64,000 nt of DNA from an uncultured Acidimicrobiaceae bacterium (lineage in GTDB: Bacteria; Actinomycetota; Acidimicrobiia; Spongiisociales; UBA5794): the NCBI GenBank assembly GCA_947258985.1, contig CAMYKI010000002.1, positions 10,248-74,247 on the forward strand, in the 5' to 3' direction. Shown in pieces: positions 9,624 through 55,284 of this stretch. Below the pieces are notes generated by a model. The model was not told where the DNA came from. It ran no database searches and saw nothing but the letters and a program-made list of their open reading frames with translations. Position 1 is the first letter of the stretch, and each line of letters opens with the position of its first letter. The position numbers and the translations under genes are program-made.

Positions 9624-11396
9624 CTATTCCGCCGGGGTCTCGGCGCCGGATCCGCCACGGCCGAGAATCTCGCGTCGCAGGGGGGCGAAGTTGTATACGT
9701 AACCCATCACCGGTACTCGGACTACCGCCAGGTACTGCCGGAGTTCCTCTGCCGTGGCAATGTCGCCCTTGTGCGGGACGACCACAAGGACCTGTTGTCC
9801 CAGGCGGACCACCGCGGAGCCGTGCGCCAGACGCAATACCGGTGGTGCATCTATCAGTACGAGATCGAATGACTCTTCGAGGGCATCGATGAGACCGGAG
9901 GCTTTGGTCGTACCGAAGAAGTCGGGCATCTGGCTCGCCAGGGTGCCTCGTTTGAACAGGGTGAGGTTCGTGCCGTCTGCACCGGTGAGGGACTCTCCGA
10001 CGCTTGCGAGGTCGGCTTCGCCGGCAGCAACATCCGTCAAGCCCTCGCCGTCCAGCCCTTCGGTGCTGAGAAGCGTCGTGAGTGCGGGGTTGACAAAGTC
10101 GGCATCGACCACGGCGACACGATTGCCACCGCGAGCAGCCGCAAACGCTGTGTTGGCGGTCACAGTGGTCTTGCCGTCGGCAAGCGTGGCAGAGGCCACC
10201 ACCACAGTCTTGAACGCGACATCGTCGTCGGACGAGTGCTGTCTGAGAGCAATTCCGGTAGCTACGAACCGGAACGATTCGGCTGCGGCTGAGTTGGGAG
10301 CGTCGGTCGTCGGCAAGTCAGACGAGAGGCGTTCGTCGCCGAATATCGGAATGTCGGATATGAGCCCGGTCTGGAGGATTGCCTGGGGTTCGCGCCGGGC
10401 TCGGAAGCTGCGCCGGCGCCGCGCCAACGATTGGGCGATTGCCGCACCGAGCATGGCTCCGCCGAGGACGCCGAGGACAATGAACAGGACACCACTTGAA
10501 GCTTCGGCGGTTTCTGCCGGCGAAGAGAAGACAACGCCGTTGCCGGCGAGTTCGGCGTCGACGGCAAGTTGGTCTCGCCGCAGCTGCAGGGCGCTGAGCC
10601 GGCTGCGCACCTCATCCTGCTGGAGGACGATTGCGGCGGTTGCTTCCTCGTCCACTGTGAACGTTCCAACTGCGATACGGAGCACGTTGACCCGGTCCCG
10701 GAGCTCTTCACGTCGCCGAGCCGATGCCGCGATCTCCTCGGGTGTTGCAGTTATCGGGGGCGCTTCATAAGCCAACAGTTCTTCGATGGCTTGCTGCAGT
10801 TGCGCCTCGGCGAGGAGTTGCTCGTCGGAAACCTCCTGCAGAACAGCGAGCTCGATCGACAGCTCAACGAGTTGTGCTTTCTGCTCGGCAATCTTGAGGT
10901 CCAGCTCCGCCAGGGCATCGCTGAATGTCGCCTCAGCTCCCTCCTGGCTGATGGACTCGTATGCGTCCGAGGTTGCGTTGGCCGCAATCACGGCTACGTC
11001 GGCCGTCGGATGTGAATAGGAGATGAAGATGAGATCGGTGGCCTCGGCGGCGCCGACCGTGAGGTTCTCTAGGTATTCGTCGATGTCGATCACGATCGGA
11101 TTCTCGAGGTCTGCGAGGTCGGAAAGGGTGCGGCGAGCCACGGACCTCGATCTGATGATCTCAATCTGGTCGGCCACGTACCTTGCTGGATCAAGACGTT
11201 GCGTCTGATCGAAGACAATCGAAGAACGAGGGTCCTGCACTGCGATTGTCGTCGCCGCCGTCCAGGCTGCCGAGGTCTGCGCAAACCACCAACCCAGGCC
11301 ACCAAAGACCAGGATGAACGCAAGCACCAGCCATCGGTATCGCCATGCGGCGCCGGGCAGCGTCGGTTCGAGATTGAGGTTTGTGGGCGTCAGCAT
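9624..11396 (-). CDS. Polysaccharide co-polymerase (Wzz-like) fused to a BY-kinase/MinD-like P-loop ATPase domain
   Basis: N-terminal TM + long coiled-coil periplasmic region + second TM; C-terminal Walker A (SATLADGKTT), Walker A' (VAVVDADF) and Walker B (DLVLIDAPP). No C-terminal Tyr cluster. Confidence 0.7.
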   Translation of the reverse strand: MLTPTNLNLEPTLPGAAWRYRWLVLAFILVFGGLGWWFAQTSAAWTAATTIAVQDPRSSIVFDQTQRLDPARYVADQIEIIRSRSVARRTLSDLADLENPIVIDIDEYLENLTVGAAEATDLIFISYSHPTADVAVIAANATSDAYESISQEGAEATFSDALAELDLKIAEQKAQLVELSIELAVLQEVSDEQLLAEAQLQQAIEELLAYEAPPITATPEEIAASARRREELRDRVNVLRIAVGTFTVDEEATAAIVLQQDEVRSRLSALQLRRDQLAVDAELAGNGVVFSSPAETAEASSGVLFIVLGVLGGAMLGAAIAQSLARRRRSFRARREPQAILQTGLISDIPIFGDERLSSDLPTTDAPNSAAAESFRFVATGIALRQHSSDDDVAFKTVVVASATLADGKTTVTANTAFAAARGGNRVAVVDADFVNPALTTLLSTEGLDGEGLTDVAAGEADLASVGESLTGADGTNLTLFKRGTLASQMPDFFGTTKASGLIDALEESFDLVLIDAPPVLRLAHGSAVVRLGQQVLVVVPHKGDIATAEELRQYLAVVRVPVMGYVYNFAPLRREILGRGGSGAETPAE

Positions 11397-49479: not shown

Positions 49480-51024
49480 ATGCCAGAGGTGCTCGCTTAC
49501 AATCAGCACATGAATCTATCAACGATCTTCAAGGCGTACGACGTGCGCGGCACAGTTCCGGACCAACTCAACGAGGCAGCGGCGAAGCGTATCGGCGCGG
49601 CATTCGCTCGGTTCGCCGCTGCTGAGCGAATCGCCGTCGGCCGGGATTGCCGGGAATCGTCACCCGGACTGGCGGCAGCCCTGATCGAGGGCATCGTGAG
49701 CCAGGGAGTGGCAGTTGATGACCTCGGCATGATTACAACCGACATGGTGTACTACGCAGCCGGTTCCATGGATCAGCCCGGGGCGATGATTACAGCCAGC
49801 CACAATCCGAAGGGCTACAACGGCATCAAACTGTGTCTGGCCGGAGCAGCGCCTGTCGGGGCGGAAACTGGTCTCGAGGACGTGCGAGCGATGGCAGAAG
49901 CAGGTCTCGAGGCCGAGGGCAACCCGGGCGACGTGCGGCGAGTCGATCCGCTGGACGGTTATGTCGATCACTTGATGTCGATAGTGGACGTGAACAAGAT
50001 CGGGTCGCTTCGCGTTGCCGCCGACGGCGGTAACGGTGTCGCAGGTGTCGCCGTACCCGACGTGTTCGCTCGCATCCCGGCCCAGCTCACCGGGCTGTAC
50101 CTCGAACCGGACGGGACCTTCCCCAACCACCATCCGGATCCGCTCCGACCCGAAAACCTGGCGGATCTCGAAGCCCTGCTTCAGTCCGAACCGCACGACC
50201 TCGGGGTGGCTTTCGATGGCGACGCCGACCGAGCGTTCTTCATTGACGATCAGCTGCAGTCGCTACCCGGCAGCACGGTGACCGGGATCATTGCCAACTG
50301 GTTCCTGCAGAAGAATCCTGGTTCGGGGATCGTTCATAACCTGATCTGCTCCAAAGCGGTGCCGGAGACGGTCCGCGCTGCCGGCGGAGAGCCGGTTCGC
50401 ACCAGGGTCGGTCATTCGTACATCAAACAGGTGATGAAAGAAACGGGAGCGATCTTCGGCGGCGAGCATTCGGGCCATTACTACTTCCGTGACAACTACT
50501 GCGCAGACTCGGGCATCCTGGCAATGCTGGTGCTGCTTCAGGTCCTCTCCGAGGACGGTCGGCCCCTCTCTCATCTGCGACGTGACTTCGAACCGTACGC
50601 GCAGTCCGGAGAGATCAACTTCGATGTTGCCGACAAGGACGAGGCCATCGAGGCCATAGGTGAAGCCTTCCCGGAGGCCACCACCGACAGACTCGATGGG
50701 CTCACCATCGACCTCGGGAATCGCTGGCTCAACGTGAGGCCGTCAAACACCGAACCGGTGCTTCGCCTCAATGTCGAGGCACCGACCGATCGTGGGGTGG
50801 AGACTCTTGTGGGCCGGGTCCGCGACATCGTGCAGAGTCCACCGGCCGCCGCAGCAGGGTTGCTGCCCGAGGGATTACTCGACATCATGCAGTGCCCCTC
50901 GTGCACCGGCACTCTGTCTGAGATCGAGGACCCCCCGTCGCTGCTGTGCGGCGGCTGTGGCTTGAGGTACCCGGTGGAAGACGGAATCCCGGTCATGCTG
51001 ATCGAGGAAGCCACTCAGACATAG
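49480..51024 (+). CDS. manB: Phosphomannomutase/phosphoglucomutase fused to a C-terminal Trm112-like zinc-ribbon domain
   Basis: Active-site TASHNPKGYNGIK, GDADR metal-binding loop, GGEHSGHYYF sugar-binding loop; the last ~50 aa (MQCPSCTGTL...LLCGGCGLRYPVEDGIPVMLIEEA) match the Trm112/YcaR consensus. Confidence 0.8.
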   Translation: MPEVLAYNQHMNLSTIFKAYDVRGTVPDQLNEAAAKRIGAAFARFAAAERIAVGRDCRESSPGLAAALIEGIVSQGVAVDDLGMITTDMVYYAAGSMDQPGAMITASHNPKGYNGIKLCLAGAAPVGAETGLEDVRAMAEAGLEAEGNPGDVRRVDPLDGYVDHLMSIVDVNKIGSLRVAADGGNGVAGVAVPDVFARIPAQLTGLYLEPDGTFPNHHPDPLRPENLADLEALLQSEPHDLGVAFDGDADRAFFIDDQLQSLPGSTVTGIIANWFLQKNPGSGIVHNLICSKAVPETVRAAGGEPVRTRVGHSYIKQVMKETGAIFGGEHSGHYYFRDNYCADSGILAMLVLLQVLSEDGRPLSHLRRDFEPYAQSGEINFDVADKDEAIEAIGEAFPEATTDRLDGLTIDLGNRWLNVRPSNTEPVLRLNVEAPTDRGVETLVGRVRDIVQSPPAAAAGLLPEGLLDIMQCPSCTGTLSEIEDPPSLLCGGCGLRYPVEDGIPVMLIEEATQT

Positions 51025-52385: not shown

Positions 52386-53321
52386 CTAGTCCCGCGCTGC
52401 CGATGCAAGGGGCCAGGGGCCTGCTGTTCGCAGATCGACCAGTACCTGGTCGGCGTCTCCGCGTCGGCTGCGTGCCTGGTCGAACAGAAGCTGGACATCA
52501 GTTGGGCCGAGCTTCTCCTTGCGCAACAACTCGTCGCGGATGGCAATGATCACGTGGCGATTCTCGAGCATGAGGCGCATGCTGTCGCGCTTGGAATCTC
52601 GAAGTAGGGCCTCGAGTTCTTTCCTGGTCCTGGCGTCCTCGAGGACTCTCTCAATGAACCGGGGTCGTCTCAAGCGCCCCGTCGCCATTGAAACAAGTGA
52701 TCCGGCCATGCCGAATCTACCCACCATGTCGGCGCCCAGTTCGGTAGCCCGGGCGAGGTCTTCGGCGGCGTGAGAACTGGAGTCTCCCGTGAATATCTCC
52801 TCAGCGGTCATTCCGGAGAGGATGTGGGCAAGCCGGTCTTGCATGGACTGCTGCGTCAGTAGAGGCACAATCGCGGTCTGCGTGACGCACGGACCGTGCA
52901 GGTGCATTCTGCCGAGCCGGCTGGGATCATCAAGGAAGCTGGCCACGATGTGGCCGGCCTGATGTGTCGCCAGGGCAAAACGCATTGATGGCGTACCGGT
53001 TCGCGCAAAGAACATTGCGACCGGAGTGCGCCAGACCAGATAGAGGGCGACCACTCCCACCGATCCGACGGCGATAGCGATGATCGTTTCGGGAGCGGCG
53101 GTATCGCGGCCGGTCCGCACAAAATCGATCCAGAGCCACACGTTGATGAGCGCGAGTGACGTGAATACCGCCACTAAGAGGATTCGGCGCCGGTGTCTCG
53201 AACCGGCTACCGCCCGGATTCCCGCCTGCATTTTTCTTGCCCCCAAGAACTGTTCGCCATTCCTATGACACCCTAGGTCACATTTAGTGGCGGCACAGCT
53301 ACATTTGGTGGCCACCCGCAT
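52386..53321 (-). CDS. FtsH-like peptidase M41 domain membrane protein lacking the AAA module; zinc-site HExxH replaced by HQxxH (probable pseudo-protease)
   Basis: Two N-terminal TM helices, then ATHQAGHIV (vs FtsH YHEAGHA), ...AAEDLARATELGADMVGRFGM (vs FtsH ASNDIERATEIARxMVTxWGM) and C-terminal helical region; no Walker A/B. The true start is probably an internal Met (MQAGIRAV). Confidence 0.55.
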   Translation of the reverse strand: MRVATKCSCAATKCDLGCHRNGEQFLGARKMQAGIRAVAGSRHRRRILLVAVFTSLALINVWLWIDFVRTGRDTAAPETIIAIAVGSVGVVALYLVWRTPVAMFFARTGTPSMRFALATHQAGHIVASFLDDPSRLGRMHLHGPCVTQTAIVPLLTQQSMQDRLAHILSGMTAEEIFTGDSSSHAAEDLARATELGADMVGRFGMAGSLVSMATGRLRRPRFIERVLEDARTRKELEALLRDSKRDSMRLMLENRHVIIAIRDELLRKEKLGPTDVQLLFDQARSRRGDADQVLVDLRTAGPWPLASAARD

Positions 53322-53358: not shown

Positions 53359-53922
53359 ATGCTGCTCTGTCTTTCCTGCATGACCTGGTGTGAGGGTTCG
53401 CTATGTGGCTGGTGCCGGTCTTGCCTCGAGGAGGTATCTCGGTGCCGGCTGCCGAGCGGCATTGAAGTAACGCCGGCCTTTGCGCACGTGGGCGTTGCTC
53501 GGACGCTGGTTCATCGACTCAAGTACGACGGGCTCTCGACGGCGGGCGAGGTCTTTGCTGCCGCTCTGGCAGCACGAATCCCTCCCGGCGCCCGGGCTCT
53601 GGTCCCGGTGCCGCGATCGACCCTTCGCAGGATGCGATATGGAATCGACCCTGCGATGGCTCTGGCGGAACTGCTGCGCCGTCGTACCGGATTGGAGATT
53701 GCTCCTGTGCTACGGCCTCCGCTGTGGTGGCCGGCCCATGCGGGTTCGCGGCGCAAGACACGGCAGACCCCCAGGTTCGAGGTTGTGGGGTCGATTCCCG
53801 CCGGAGGTGTTCTCGTCGACGACGTTCTCACCACTGGCGCCACCCTCACCGGTGCGGCGAATGTCTCGGGCATTGGTCTGGCAGTTACCGCGACCCGTGC
53901 GGGGCGGGGCCTGTCGGGGTAG
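53359..53922 (+). CDS. ComF/GntX-family phosphoribosyltransferase-domain protein
   Basis: N-terminal Cys4 (CLSC...CGWC), C-terminal PRTase motif VLVDDVLTTGATL; conserved position upstream of hpf. Confidence 0.7.
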   Translation: MLLCLSCMTWCEGSLCGWCRSCLEEVSRCRLPSGIEVTPAFAHVGVARTLVHRLKYDGLSTAGEVFAAALAARIPPGARALVPVPRSTLRRMRYGIDPAMALAELLRRRTGLEIAPVLRPPLWWPAHAGSRRKTRQTPRFEVVGSIPAGGVLVDDVLTTGATLTGAANVSGIGLAVTATRAGRGLSG

Positions 53923-54085: not shown

Positions 54086-54637
54086 GTGGACGTACGCGTA
54101 CACGGTAAGAACATGCGGGTTGGGGACAATGTCCACGACATAGCCGTCGACAAGATCGGTCGCGCCGGAAGGATCTTCGACGACGGTTCGGTCGCAGACG
54201 TGGAGTTCTCAGAGTTGCGGAATCCGCGTTCAGCAGGAGAGCGATTCAAGGTCGAGATAACCAGCCACACTGCAGGTCACACCGTACGCGTTGCTTCGCA
54301 AGCACCCGACGCCGTTTCGGCTGTCGATTTGGCTGCCGATAAGTTCGAAAGACAGTTGCGTCGCCTCAAGGAACGGCTCATACAGAGATCGCGAAATCGA
54401 GATCACAAAATGCTCAATGGTGCGCCATCCGTGTCCGATGAAGAGCAGGATGAAGGGCCAGGAAATATCGTCAGGACCAAGAGGTTTGCGATGAGGCCCA
54501 TGACACCGGAGGAAGCTGGATTGCAGATGGAGATGCTCGGACATGACTTCTTCTTCTTCCTTGACGCCGAGAGCGGCAAGTACTGCGTCCTCTACCACCG
54601 TGACGACGGCAACCTAGGACTGATAGAGCCCGAATGA
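54086..54637 (+). CDS. hpf: Ribosome hibernation-promoting factor (long HPF/RaiA)
   Basis: VDVRVHGKNMRVGDNVHDIAVDKIGRAG...AADKFERQLRRLKERL; start reassigned to GTG 54086 preceded by aaaggag. The annotated 385-aa ORF from 53480 is an upstream read-through artefact. Confidence 0.75.
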   Translation: MDVRVHGKNMRVGDNVHDIAVDKIGRAGRIFDDGSVADVEFSELRNPRSAGERFKVEITSHTAGHTVRVASQAPDAVSAVDLAADKFERQLRRLKERLIQRSRNRDHKMLNGAPSVSDEEQDEGPGNIVRTKRFAMRPMTPEEAGLQMEMLGHDFFFFLDAESGKYCVLYHRDDGNLGLIEPE

Positions 54638-55284
54638 CACGTCTCCTTGTAGTCGATGATGTTCCCCTCTTTAGGGCTGGGTTGACCGCCGCCCTCAACG
54701 AGGCAGGTTTCGACGTTGTCGGTGAAGCCGGCAACGCCGAAGACGCTGTTGCGCAAGCTGAGGTTCTGCAACCGGACCTGGTTCTGCTCGACGTTCTGAT
54801 GCCGGGCCTTTCCGGCCTCGACGTTGTTGGCAAGATCGTGGCCGTTTCCGAGAAGTCTCAGGTCATCTTGCTCACAGGCAGCGAGTCTGAAGAAGACATG
54901 ATCTCCGCGATCAAGTCGGGGGCGCGCGGCTACATCGTCAAGGACATGCCCTTTGCCCATCTGGTCGATCTGATCAGGGCGGTTGCAGAGGGCGGAGCTG
55001 CGTTTTCTCCGAAGATGGCGGGGAAGATGGTCGACGTGTTGCGGCAACTGCTCCGCCACCAGGAGTTGTTCAAGTCCCGCAAGCCGACTCTCACCGGACG
55101 TGAGATCGAGGTGCTGCAGTTGGTAGCCCGGGGCATGACCAGCCGGGCGATCGGCGAGAGGCTCTTCATTTCCGAGAATACGGTGAAGAACCATATCCGG
55201 AACATCCTCGACAAACTGGGTTTGCACTCCCGTAACGAGGCCGTGCTCTACGCAGTTAGAGAAGAGTTCATCACCCTGGATTAG
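54634..55284 (+). CDS. Two-component response regulator, NarL/LuxR family (REC + HTH_LuxR)
   Basis: MTRLLVVDDVPLFRAGL...DLVLLDVLMPG (phospho-acceptor Asp) and C-terminal LTGREIEVLQLVARGMTSRAIGERLFISENTVKNHIRNIL. Confidence 0.8.
   Translation: MTRLLVVDDVPLFRAGLTAALNEAGFDVVGEAGNAEDAVAQAEVLQPDLVLLDVLMPGLSGLDVVGKIVAVSEKSQVILLTGSESEEDMISAIKSGARGYIVKDMPFAHLVDLIRAVAEGGAAFSPKMAGKMVDVLRQLLRHQELFKSRKPTLTGREIEVLQLVARGMTSRAIGERLFISENTVKNHIRNILDKLGLHSRNEAVLYAVREEFITLD

Follow-up and report, generated by a model that had tools for sequence, protein, structure and literature searches.

FtsH is the universal membrane-anchored AAA protease. In all crystal structures its protease domain is six-fold symmetric (PMC7949044); the zinc histidines of the T. 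maritima enzyme are His423 and His427 (PMC12067869), and the zinc pattern of the E. coli enzyme is HExxHx74D (PMC11266112). Members of the M41 family that have left proteolysis are described from plants: FtsHi1-5 are presumed unable to cleave and to have a non-proteolytic function (PMC11266112, PMC8197885). The FtsHi proteins have kept the AAA motor and lost zinc-binding His (PMC11266112, Table 2), and they are the only M41 case given in a 2024 review of metallopeptidase pseudo-enzymes (PMC11266112). The same review lists ADAM7, in which the motif reads HQLGH, so that the zinc ligands are retained and the general base is changed (PMC11266112, Table 2). Our full-text literature search on AAA-less, stand-alone or pseudo M41 proteins returned only plant FtsHi papers and generic FtsH papers and no description of AAA-less bacterial M41 proteins, which, given its incomplete coverage, is absence of evidence only. 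The "ternary systems" of FtsH treated in PMC7159879 are a matter of AAA domains and have no connection with such proteins.

In this study, we followed up an M41-like gene in a 64-kb stretch of bacterial DNA, here called the window. Our analysis identified a new bacterial family of motor-less M41 pseudo-proteases with a traceable origin, built on a fold that was already known.

The M41-only gene and its protein

The maximal ORF present in the window spans 52386-53321 on the minus strand and encodes 311 aa. We take the coding sequence to be most likely 52386-53231 (281 aa) and not 52386-53321, because the homologues, which are about 280 aa long, and the gene callers start at MQAG (Met31, nucleotide 53231), because the 30 codons upstream of Met31 show no protein-level conservation among the homologues, and because an in-frame TAG lies two codons upstream of 53321. 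The residue numbers of the membrane helices, His90, Cys115, Asp158 and the other mapped parts are counted from Met31. The mapped features are as follows.

52386-53231, minus strand: likely coding sequence, 281 aa plus stop, with a membrane hairpin and an M41 pseudo-protease domain (coordinates checked by translation)
53232-53321, minus strand: 30-codon 5' extension of the maximal ORF, probably untranslated; G-rich just before the ATG at 53231
53118-53183, minus strand: transmembrane helix 1, residues 17-38 (Kyte-Doolittle peaks, charge count, paralogue alignment)
53088-53117, minus strand: outside loop of 10 residues between the transmembrane helices
53031-53087, minus strand: transmembrane helix 2, residues 49-67 (hydropathy)
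52992-53030, minus strand: linker of 13 residues (68-80) with a near-invariant WRxP junction (family and paralogue alignments)
52425-52991, minus strand: FtsH-type M41 peptidase fold, residues 81-269 (Pfam, PDB sequence searches, AlphaFold2 with Foldseek)
52950-52964, minus strand: HQAGH, residues 90-94, codons CAT CAG GCC GGC CAC
52887-52889, minus strand: Cys115 (family alignment, profile alignment to T. maritima FtsH)
52797-52805, minus strand: AEE motif, residues 143-145, conserved as in GGRAAEE of FtsH (phmmer, family alignment)
52758-52760, minus strand: Asp158, invariant, on the third zinc ligand of FtsH (the Asp of AANDIERAT)
52428-52445, minus strand: C-terminal VLVDLR motif, residues 263-268, common to the family and the full-length paralogue clade

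An earlier note, made from the DNA letters alone, had described a protein with two N-terminal transmembrane helices and a stand-alone M41 domain that had lost its catalytic Glu and had no AAA module, and each of these features was recovered here. Hydropathy analysis placed the two helices at the residues listed above. Helix 1 carries a WLW motif that is common to the full-length paralogue in the alignment, and it is preceded by an Arg-rich N-terminus (RHRRR); in total, five Lys or Arg residues precede helix 1 and three follow helix 2. Because of these flanking charges and the positive-inside rule, both termini should be cytoplasmic, and the M41 domain should face the cytoplasm.

The M41 assignment was confirmed by several searches. 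Pfam Peptidase_M41 (PF01434) matched residues 149-277 with 50.2 bits against a gathering cut-off of 29.9 (E 3.7e-13), and the same domain is precomputed on all 72 homologues retrieved from the protein databases. A phmmer search of the PDB retrieved T. maritima FtsH (E 2e-9) as well as the A. aeolicus, T. thermophilus and E. coli FtsH structures and human AFG3L2. In the T. maritima alignment, HQAGH falls on HEAGH and AAEDLARATELGADMV falls on AANDIERATEIARNMV, and the alignments to PDB FtsH entries placed AAEDLARATELGADMVGRFGM on AANDIERATEIARNMV.QLGM; since AAEDLARATELGADMV and AAEDLARATELGADMVGRFGM align with AANDIERATEIARNMV, the Asp that serves as third zinc ligand is conserved. The His and Gln residues thus occupy the zinc-site positions, as the earlier note had proposed, and a chance HxxxH was ruled out by these phmmer and profile alignments to solved FtsH structures. 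At the level of structure, the family alignment yielded an AlphaFold2 model (mean pLDDT 75.9) whose top Foldseek matches were all FtsH, AFG3L2 or YME1, the best being 2ce7 (E 2e-7, probability 1.0), with TM scores of 0.72-0.74 when normalised to the isolated protease domain 2di4. PDB matches to a TAL effector (Hax3) at residues 62-124 had zero passing stretches and were rejected as compositional. By sequence and fold, the protein belongs to the M41 domain family, though as a non-peptidase homologue.

What is missing is the motor. The FtsH model TIGR01241 was matched only at positions 421-595 of 598, with 48 bits against a cut-off of 600 bits, and the protein has no AAA match in Pfam. When two full-length paralogues were compared with all six frames of the 64-kb window by tblastn, only 52443-52994 matched, with no AAA similarity in any frame and no FtsH gene in the window. 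A frameshifted ftsH pseudogene was rejected on three grounds: the TAG two codons upstream of the ORF, the divergent comF-like gene that starts at 53359, 38 nt beyond the maximal ORF, and the lack of AAA similarity in six frames.

The active site is altered at a single position of the zinc motif. Both zinc His residues of HQAGH are kept, and the catalytic Glu is replaced by Gln91, whose codon CAG is one substitution away from Glu (GAG), His or Arg. Across the family, the zinc ligands H90, H94 and D158 are invariant. The HQxxH form is not the family state: of the 77 family sequences, 52 have His at the general-base position, 19 have Gln, five have Arg and one has Glu. On a neighbour-joining tree without support values, Gln, His and Arg interchange repeatedly, and Glu is confined to P0075, the member that branches first. 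A site that still binds but no longer catalyses would be expected to look like this, with metal ligands that never change beside a base position that is free to vary, and the domain probably still binds zinc. Engineered Glu-to-Gln protease-dead variants typically have just such a site, competent in binding and dead in hydrolysis.

Two further changes lie beside this site. Cys115 is present in all 76 members that lack the Glu and is missing from P0075, the sole HEAGH member. Profile alignment puts it on G449 of T. maritima FtsH, at the end of the RISIIPRG strand, and the eight T. maritima residues that follow G449 (YKALGYTL, 450-457) are deleted in the window protein. We take this segment to be the lid helix, or active-site switch, over the FtsH cleft; the lid helix is reportedly the subject of a paper by Suno et al. 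from 2012, which PMC7949044 cites. At the other end of the domain, the VLVDLR motif, where AlphaFold2 confidence is low, may be a docking or strand-addition motif.

Distribution, selection and origin of the family

The protein had appeared to be an isolated bacterial oddity, a view that did not survive wider searches. Among 5.8 billion proteins searched, we found 72 homologues; almost all of them are M41-only and 277-306 aa long, and those with a taxon label came from Acidimicrobiia or Actinomycetota MAGs. In an exhaustive profile search of 1.84 billion representatives, only about nine clusters at 50% identity scored above E 1e-50, and the next matches lay at E 1e-33. Scanning 185,579 GTDB species genomes yielded 12 loci, all in MAGs, the closest of which is no nearer than 49% to the window; the taxon-labelled loci are again Acidimicrobiia or Actinomycetota, except for one MAG labelled Gemmatimonadales. 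In all, about 77 homologues make up one narrow family of proteins of about 280 aa. The NCBIfam search gave only partial FtsH matches and no family-specific model.

The gene also has a fixed neighbourhood. The order manB, ahcY, M41 gene (on the opposite strand), comF-like gene, hpf, GerE-type response regulator gene and secA is fixed, with synteny conserved in loci L001-L004. Several details of this neighbourhood were observed in passing. The phosphomannomutase at 49480-51024 (plus strand) carries a C-terminal Trm112p-like zinc-ribbon (residues 466-502, Pfam E 1.4e-6), and in locus L017, from MAG GCA_964347305.1, the Trm112p-like part is a separate gene of 58 aa (10782-10958); this looks like a lineage-specific fusion or split. 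The ComF-like ORF at 53359-53922 (plus strand) encodes 187 aa that include a PRTase-like VLVDDVLTTGATL motif and are rich in Cys at the N-terminus; no Pfam family matches it at E<=1e-3, and none is recorded for its homologues in L001-L004. Within 54086-55284 (plus strand), the hpf stop overlaps the start of the GerE-type response regulator gene by 4 nt (54634-54637). The hpf-regulator order is conserved in L001-L004 and L017, with secA after the regulator in the window and in L001-L003; the conserved order and the 4-nt overlap suggest a co-transcribed ribosome-hibernation and regulator unit. GC content is uniform across the window (59-65%), no tRNA genes and no Rfam families at the gathering threshold were found in its 64 kb, and a promoter and terminator scan gave nothing relevant.

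The M41-only gene is under purifying selection, yet it evolves 2-10 times faster than its neighbours. In the closest pairs, dN/dS (Nei-Gojobori) was 0.16-0.19 at dS of 0.8-1.35, compared with 0.014-0.095 for ahcY, hpf and the response regulator gene across these genome pairs. About 37 alignment columns are invariant, including H90, G93, H94, C115, A143, E144, D158 and the VLVD of VLVDLR. The faster evolution suggests a non-essential or lineage-specific role.

The nearest AAA-bearing relatives belong to a clade of Actinomycetota FtsH paralogues of 600-660 aa (for example P0094, P0089, P0099 and P0223, the product of L017). To our knowledge, this short-loop clade with its [VI]DLR motif is uncharacterised. 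Its members have an Arg-rich N-terminus, a short-loop transmembrane hairpin, GRSP after helix 2, an AAA domain with GPPGTGKT and a second region of homology (SRH), and HEAGH; the [VI]DLR motif is frequent at their C-termini, and the Cys of the M41-only family is lacking. When the family was aligned with the paralogues, the hairpin and the xR(S/T)P junction matched and an AAA module of about 330 aa was missing. The junction at this gap reads WRxP in the family and GRSP in the paralogue, and similarity starts again about 10 residues ahead of the zinc motif.

One genome connects the two groups by position. In L017, a full-length paralogue ending in VLVDLR, split by a 10-N assembly gap, occupies the same chromosomal slot on the opposite strand, flanked by ahcY (plus one acetyltransferase gene) on one side and by comF-like, hpf and response regulator genes on the other. 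This same-slot arrangement was seen in one MAG only: other Actinomycetota carry the paralogue elsewhere, and no further full-length paralogue was found in the ahcY/comF slot, P0307, P0079, P0299 and P0263 lying elsewhere or on fragmented contigs. The L017 product, P0223, is the best AAA-containing match both to P0061 and to P0075 (42%, E 1e-36 for the latter). P0075 itself is AAA-less, keeps HEAGH, has no Cys and is syntenic (L004); it is a single sequence from a 5.6-kb contig. In the neighbour-joining tree, which carries no support values, the family is monophyletic and sister to the paralogue clade, and the HEAGH member branches first.

Because the same-slot paralogue of L017 shares the transmembrane hairpin and the VLVDLR motif, the most likely origin of the family is an internal deletion that removed the AAA module, after which the catalytic Glu was lost. 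Together, P0223 in the same slot and the AAA-less HEAGH protein P0075 suggest the order of events, with AAA deletion first, and then Glu loss, lid shortening and Cys gain.

Other features of these relatives were also observed. Members of the paralogue clade (L017 7105-9041; P0089, P0094, P0099 and P0105) have an insertion in the AAA domain, a Walker B motif written IEEID and a very short periplasmic loop. The VLVDLR or xIDLR motif is seen again at the C-termini of P0223, P0082, P0084, P0085 and P0091, in some cases as tandem copies. Two sporadic M41-only proteins from metagenomes fall outside the family: P0167 (269 aa), which has an N-terminal transmembrane region and HEAGH and forms a singleton cluster, and P0086 (223 aa), which has HGAGH. 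The M41-only architecture is thus not unique to the Acidimicrobiia clade, and FtsH-like genes may have lost the AAA module on more than one occasion.

Proposed function and competing explanations

Taken together, we propose that the family is a conserved, membrane-tethered, non-catalytic pseudo-protease, derived from the full-length paralogue, whose zinc-binding ring acts by binding; we give this whole scheme somewhat better than an even chance. The ancestor would have been an Actinomycetota FtsH paralogue of full length that already lay in this chromosomal slot. Internal deletion would have taken the AAA module of about 330 aa and left the transmembrane hairpin, the M41 domain and the VLVDLR tail, and the catalytic Glu would later have been lost, the lid segment partly deleted and a Cys fixed beside the metal site. 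By analogy with FtsH, the M41 domain probably assembles into a six-fold ring, which the tether of 13 residues would keep close to the inner face of the membrane. Such a ring would probably bind zinc, but it could perform neither hydrolysis by Glu-activated water nor substrate unfolding or translocation; because neither activity would be possible, it would act by binding. The ring might serve as a holdase, a trap or a docking platform; its clients might be membrane proteins, bound by their extended cytoplasmic segments, or partners of the ancestral protease, recognised through the transmembrane hairpin and the VLVDLR tail. In this way, the M41-only protein could modulate membrane-protein quality control instead of performing it. 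We favour an autonomous binding platform or holdase over the other readings.

The earlier note had suggested a scaffold or regulator of a real FtsH, which is plausible. The protein could enter mixed hexamers through M41-M41 contacts, diluting the motor and protease sites, or it could compete for substrates or partners, as a decoy or adaptor, through its hairpin and VLVDLR tail. The M41 domains are the constant six-fold platform of FtsH rings (PMC7949044), the hairpin, the post-helix-2 motif and VLVDLR are all retained from the full-length paralogue, and YqgP, a catalytically dispensable membrane protease that acts as an FtsH adaptor (PMC7231995), offers a precedent. However, only 13 residues link helix 2 to the M41 domain, compared with a linker of about 20 residues plus a whole AAA ring in FtsH, so that co-planar mixed M41 rings would be strained, though possible, and the tblastn search found no FtsH gene in the window. 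We regard action through a real FtsH as doubtful, although it is the main rival of the binding-platform reading. It seems unlikelier still that the protein has remained a peptidase, that is, an ATP-independent membrane-tethered oligopeptidase that uses another base (His, Gln or Arg at position 91, Glu144 or Cys115). Strict conservation of the zinc triad and the AEE motif would also be compatible with residual or altered catalysis; moreover, an active AAA-less form may exist or have existed, as the same-slot P0075 keeps HEAGH without an AAA module, and P0167 combines a transmembrane region, an M41 domain and HEAGH in an unrelated protein. Against this, the base position toggles between His, Gln and Arg and has switched repeatedly on the tree, which argues against a specific catalytic role, and the lid or edge segment beside the cleft is partly deleted. 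Replacing the Glu of HExxH by Gln is the textbook way to inactivate such a site. ADAM7, with its HQLGH, is classed as a pseudo-peptidase (PMC11266112).

That the gene is a decaying, functionless remnant of an ftsH paralogue, or an artefact of ORF calling, is highly improbable. Both hallmark activities have been lost and the gene evolves faster than its neighbours, as such a remnant would, but more than 70 sequences, with identities as low as about 40%, have an unbroken ORF of constant length. Some 37 columns are invariant, dN/dS is about 0.17, and the gene keeps its place in the genome in at least 12 species-level MAGs.

Returning to the preferred binding ring, we also considered a more specific and speculative arrangement, which we think unlikely to hold as a whole. 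The invariant Cys could complete a closed His2-Asp-Cys metal site, with a built-in "cysteine switch", in a ring pressed against the membrane that would capture cytoplasmic tails or sense zinc or redox state, and that could gate a true FtsH. If this were true, the closed-site ring would be a new type of bacterial membrane pseudo-protease, and the tails that it captures rather than degrades would belong to membrane or secretory proteins.

The suggested stepwise series, from a full-length paralogue through an AAA-less HEAGH form to AAA-less forms with His, Gln or Arg and a Cys, could be used to probe what the M41 ring does alone, such as oligomerisation, peptide binding and membrane docking. It could also reveal how AAA proteases give rise to pseudo-enzymes. 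The pattern of domain loss is unusual and the evolutionary path clean, but practical impact is limited, since only a small uncultured clade has the family.

Comparison with known systems

The protein resembles bacterial FtsH (MEROPS M41; TIGR01241) in its two-helix N-terminal membrane anchor, in the cytoplasmic position of what corresponds to the catalytic part, in the M41 fold with the HxxxH and Asp zinc triad and the AEE motif, and in its C-terminal helical region. It differs in having no Walker A or B motif and no SRH, Gln in place of Glu, the 8-residue lid deletion and an extra invariant Cys; moreover, FtsH has a periplasmic domain of about 75 aa, whereas the loop of the window protein is only 10 aa long. 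The protein is not an FtsH: the AAA module is absent, the score falls far below the equivalog cut-off and the periplasmic domain is lacking.

The full-length Actinomycetota paralogues are closer. They share the short-loop hairpin, the W-rich helix 1, the xR(S/T)P junction, the M41 domain and the [VI]DLR or VLVDLR motif with the family, as well as the same chromosomal slot in L017, but they are 600-660 aa long, with an intact AAA domain and HEAGH, and lack the family Cys.

Among pseudo-metallopeptidases with HQxxH, such as ADAM7, the likeness lies in retained zinc ligands and a general base that alone is altered. ADAM7 is another clan member with another architecture, and the window family varies between His, Gln and Arg instead of holding a fixed Gln. 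The cysteine switch of pro-MMPs and ADAMs serves as an analogy only: a Cys thiol capping a His-coordinated zinc would close the site, and the family Cys appears exactly where the Glu is lost, next to the cleft. However, this Cys lies within the domain itself, whereas that of pro-MMPs and ADAMs is in a removable prodomain.

The likeness to plant FtsHi that the earlier note had drawn stands in the loose sense of an M41 pseudo-protease, but the anatomy is reversed. In the Ycf2-FtsHi import motor the AAA motor is the functional part, and the window protein is bacterial and far smaller; a counterpart of the Ycf2-FtsHi chloroplast complex is not expected, because the window is bacterial, with relatives in Acidimicrobiia-type MAGs. 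The window family is the mirror image of FtsHi: it has lost the motor and kept the His-His-Asp triad. It thus appears to have taken the opposite path within bacteria, in which the motor was deleted, the metal site was preserved, the base was lost, and the product is under selection.
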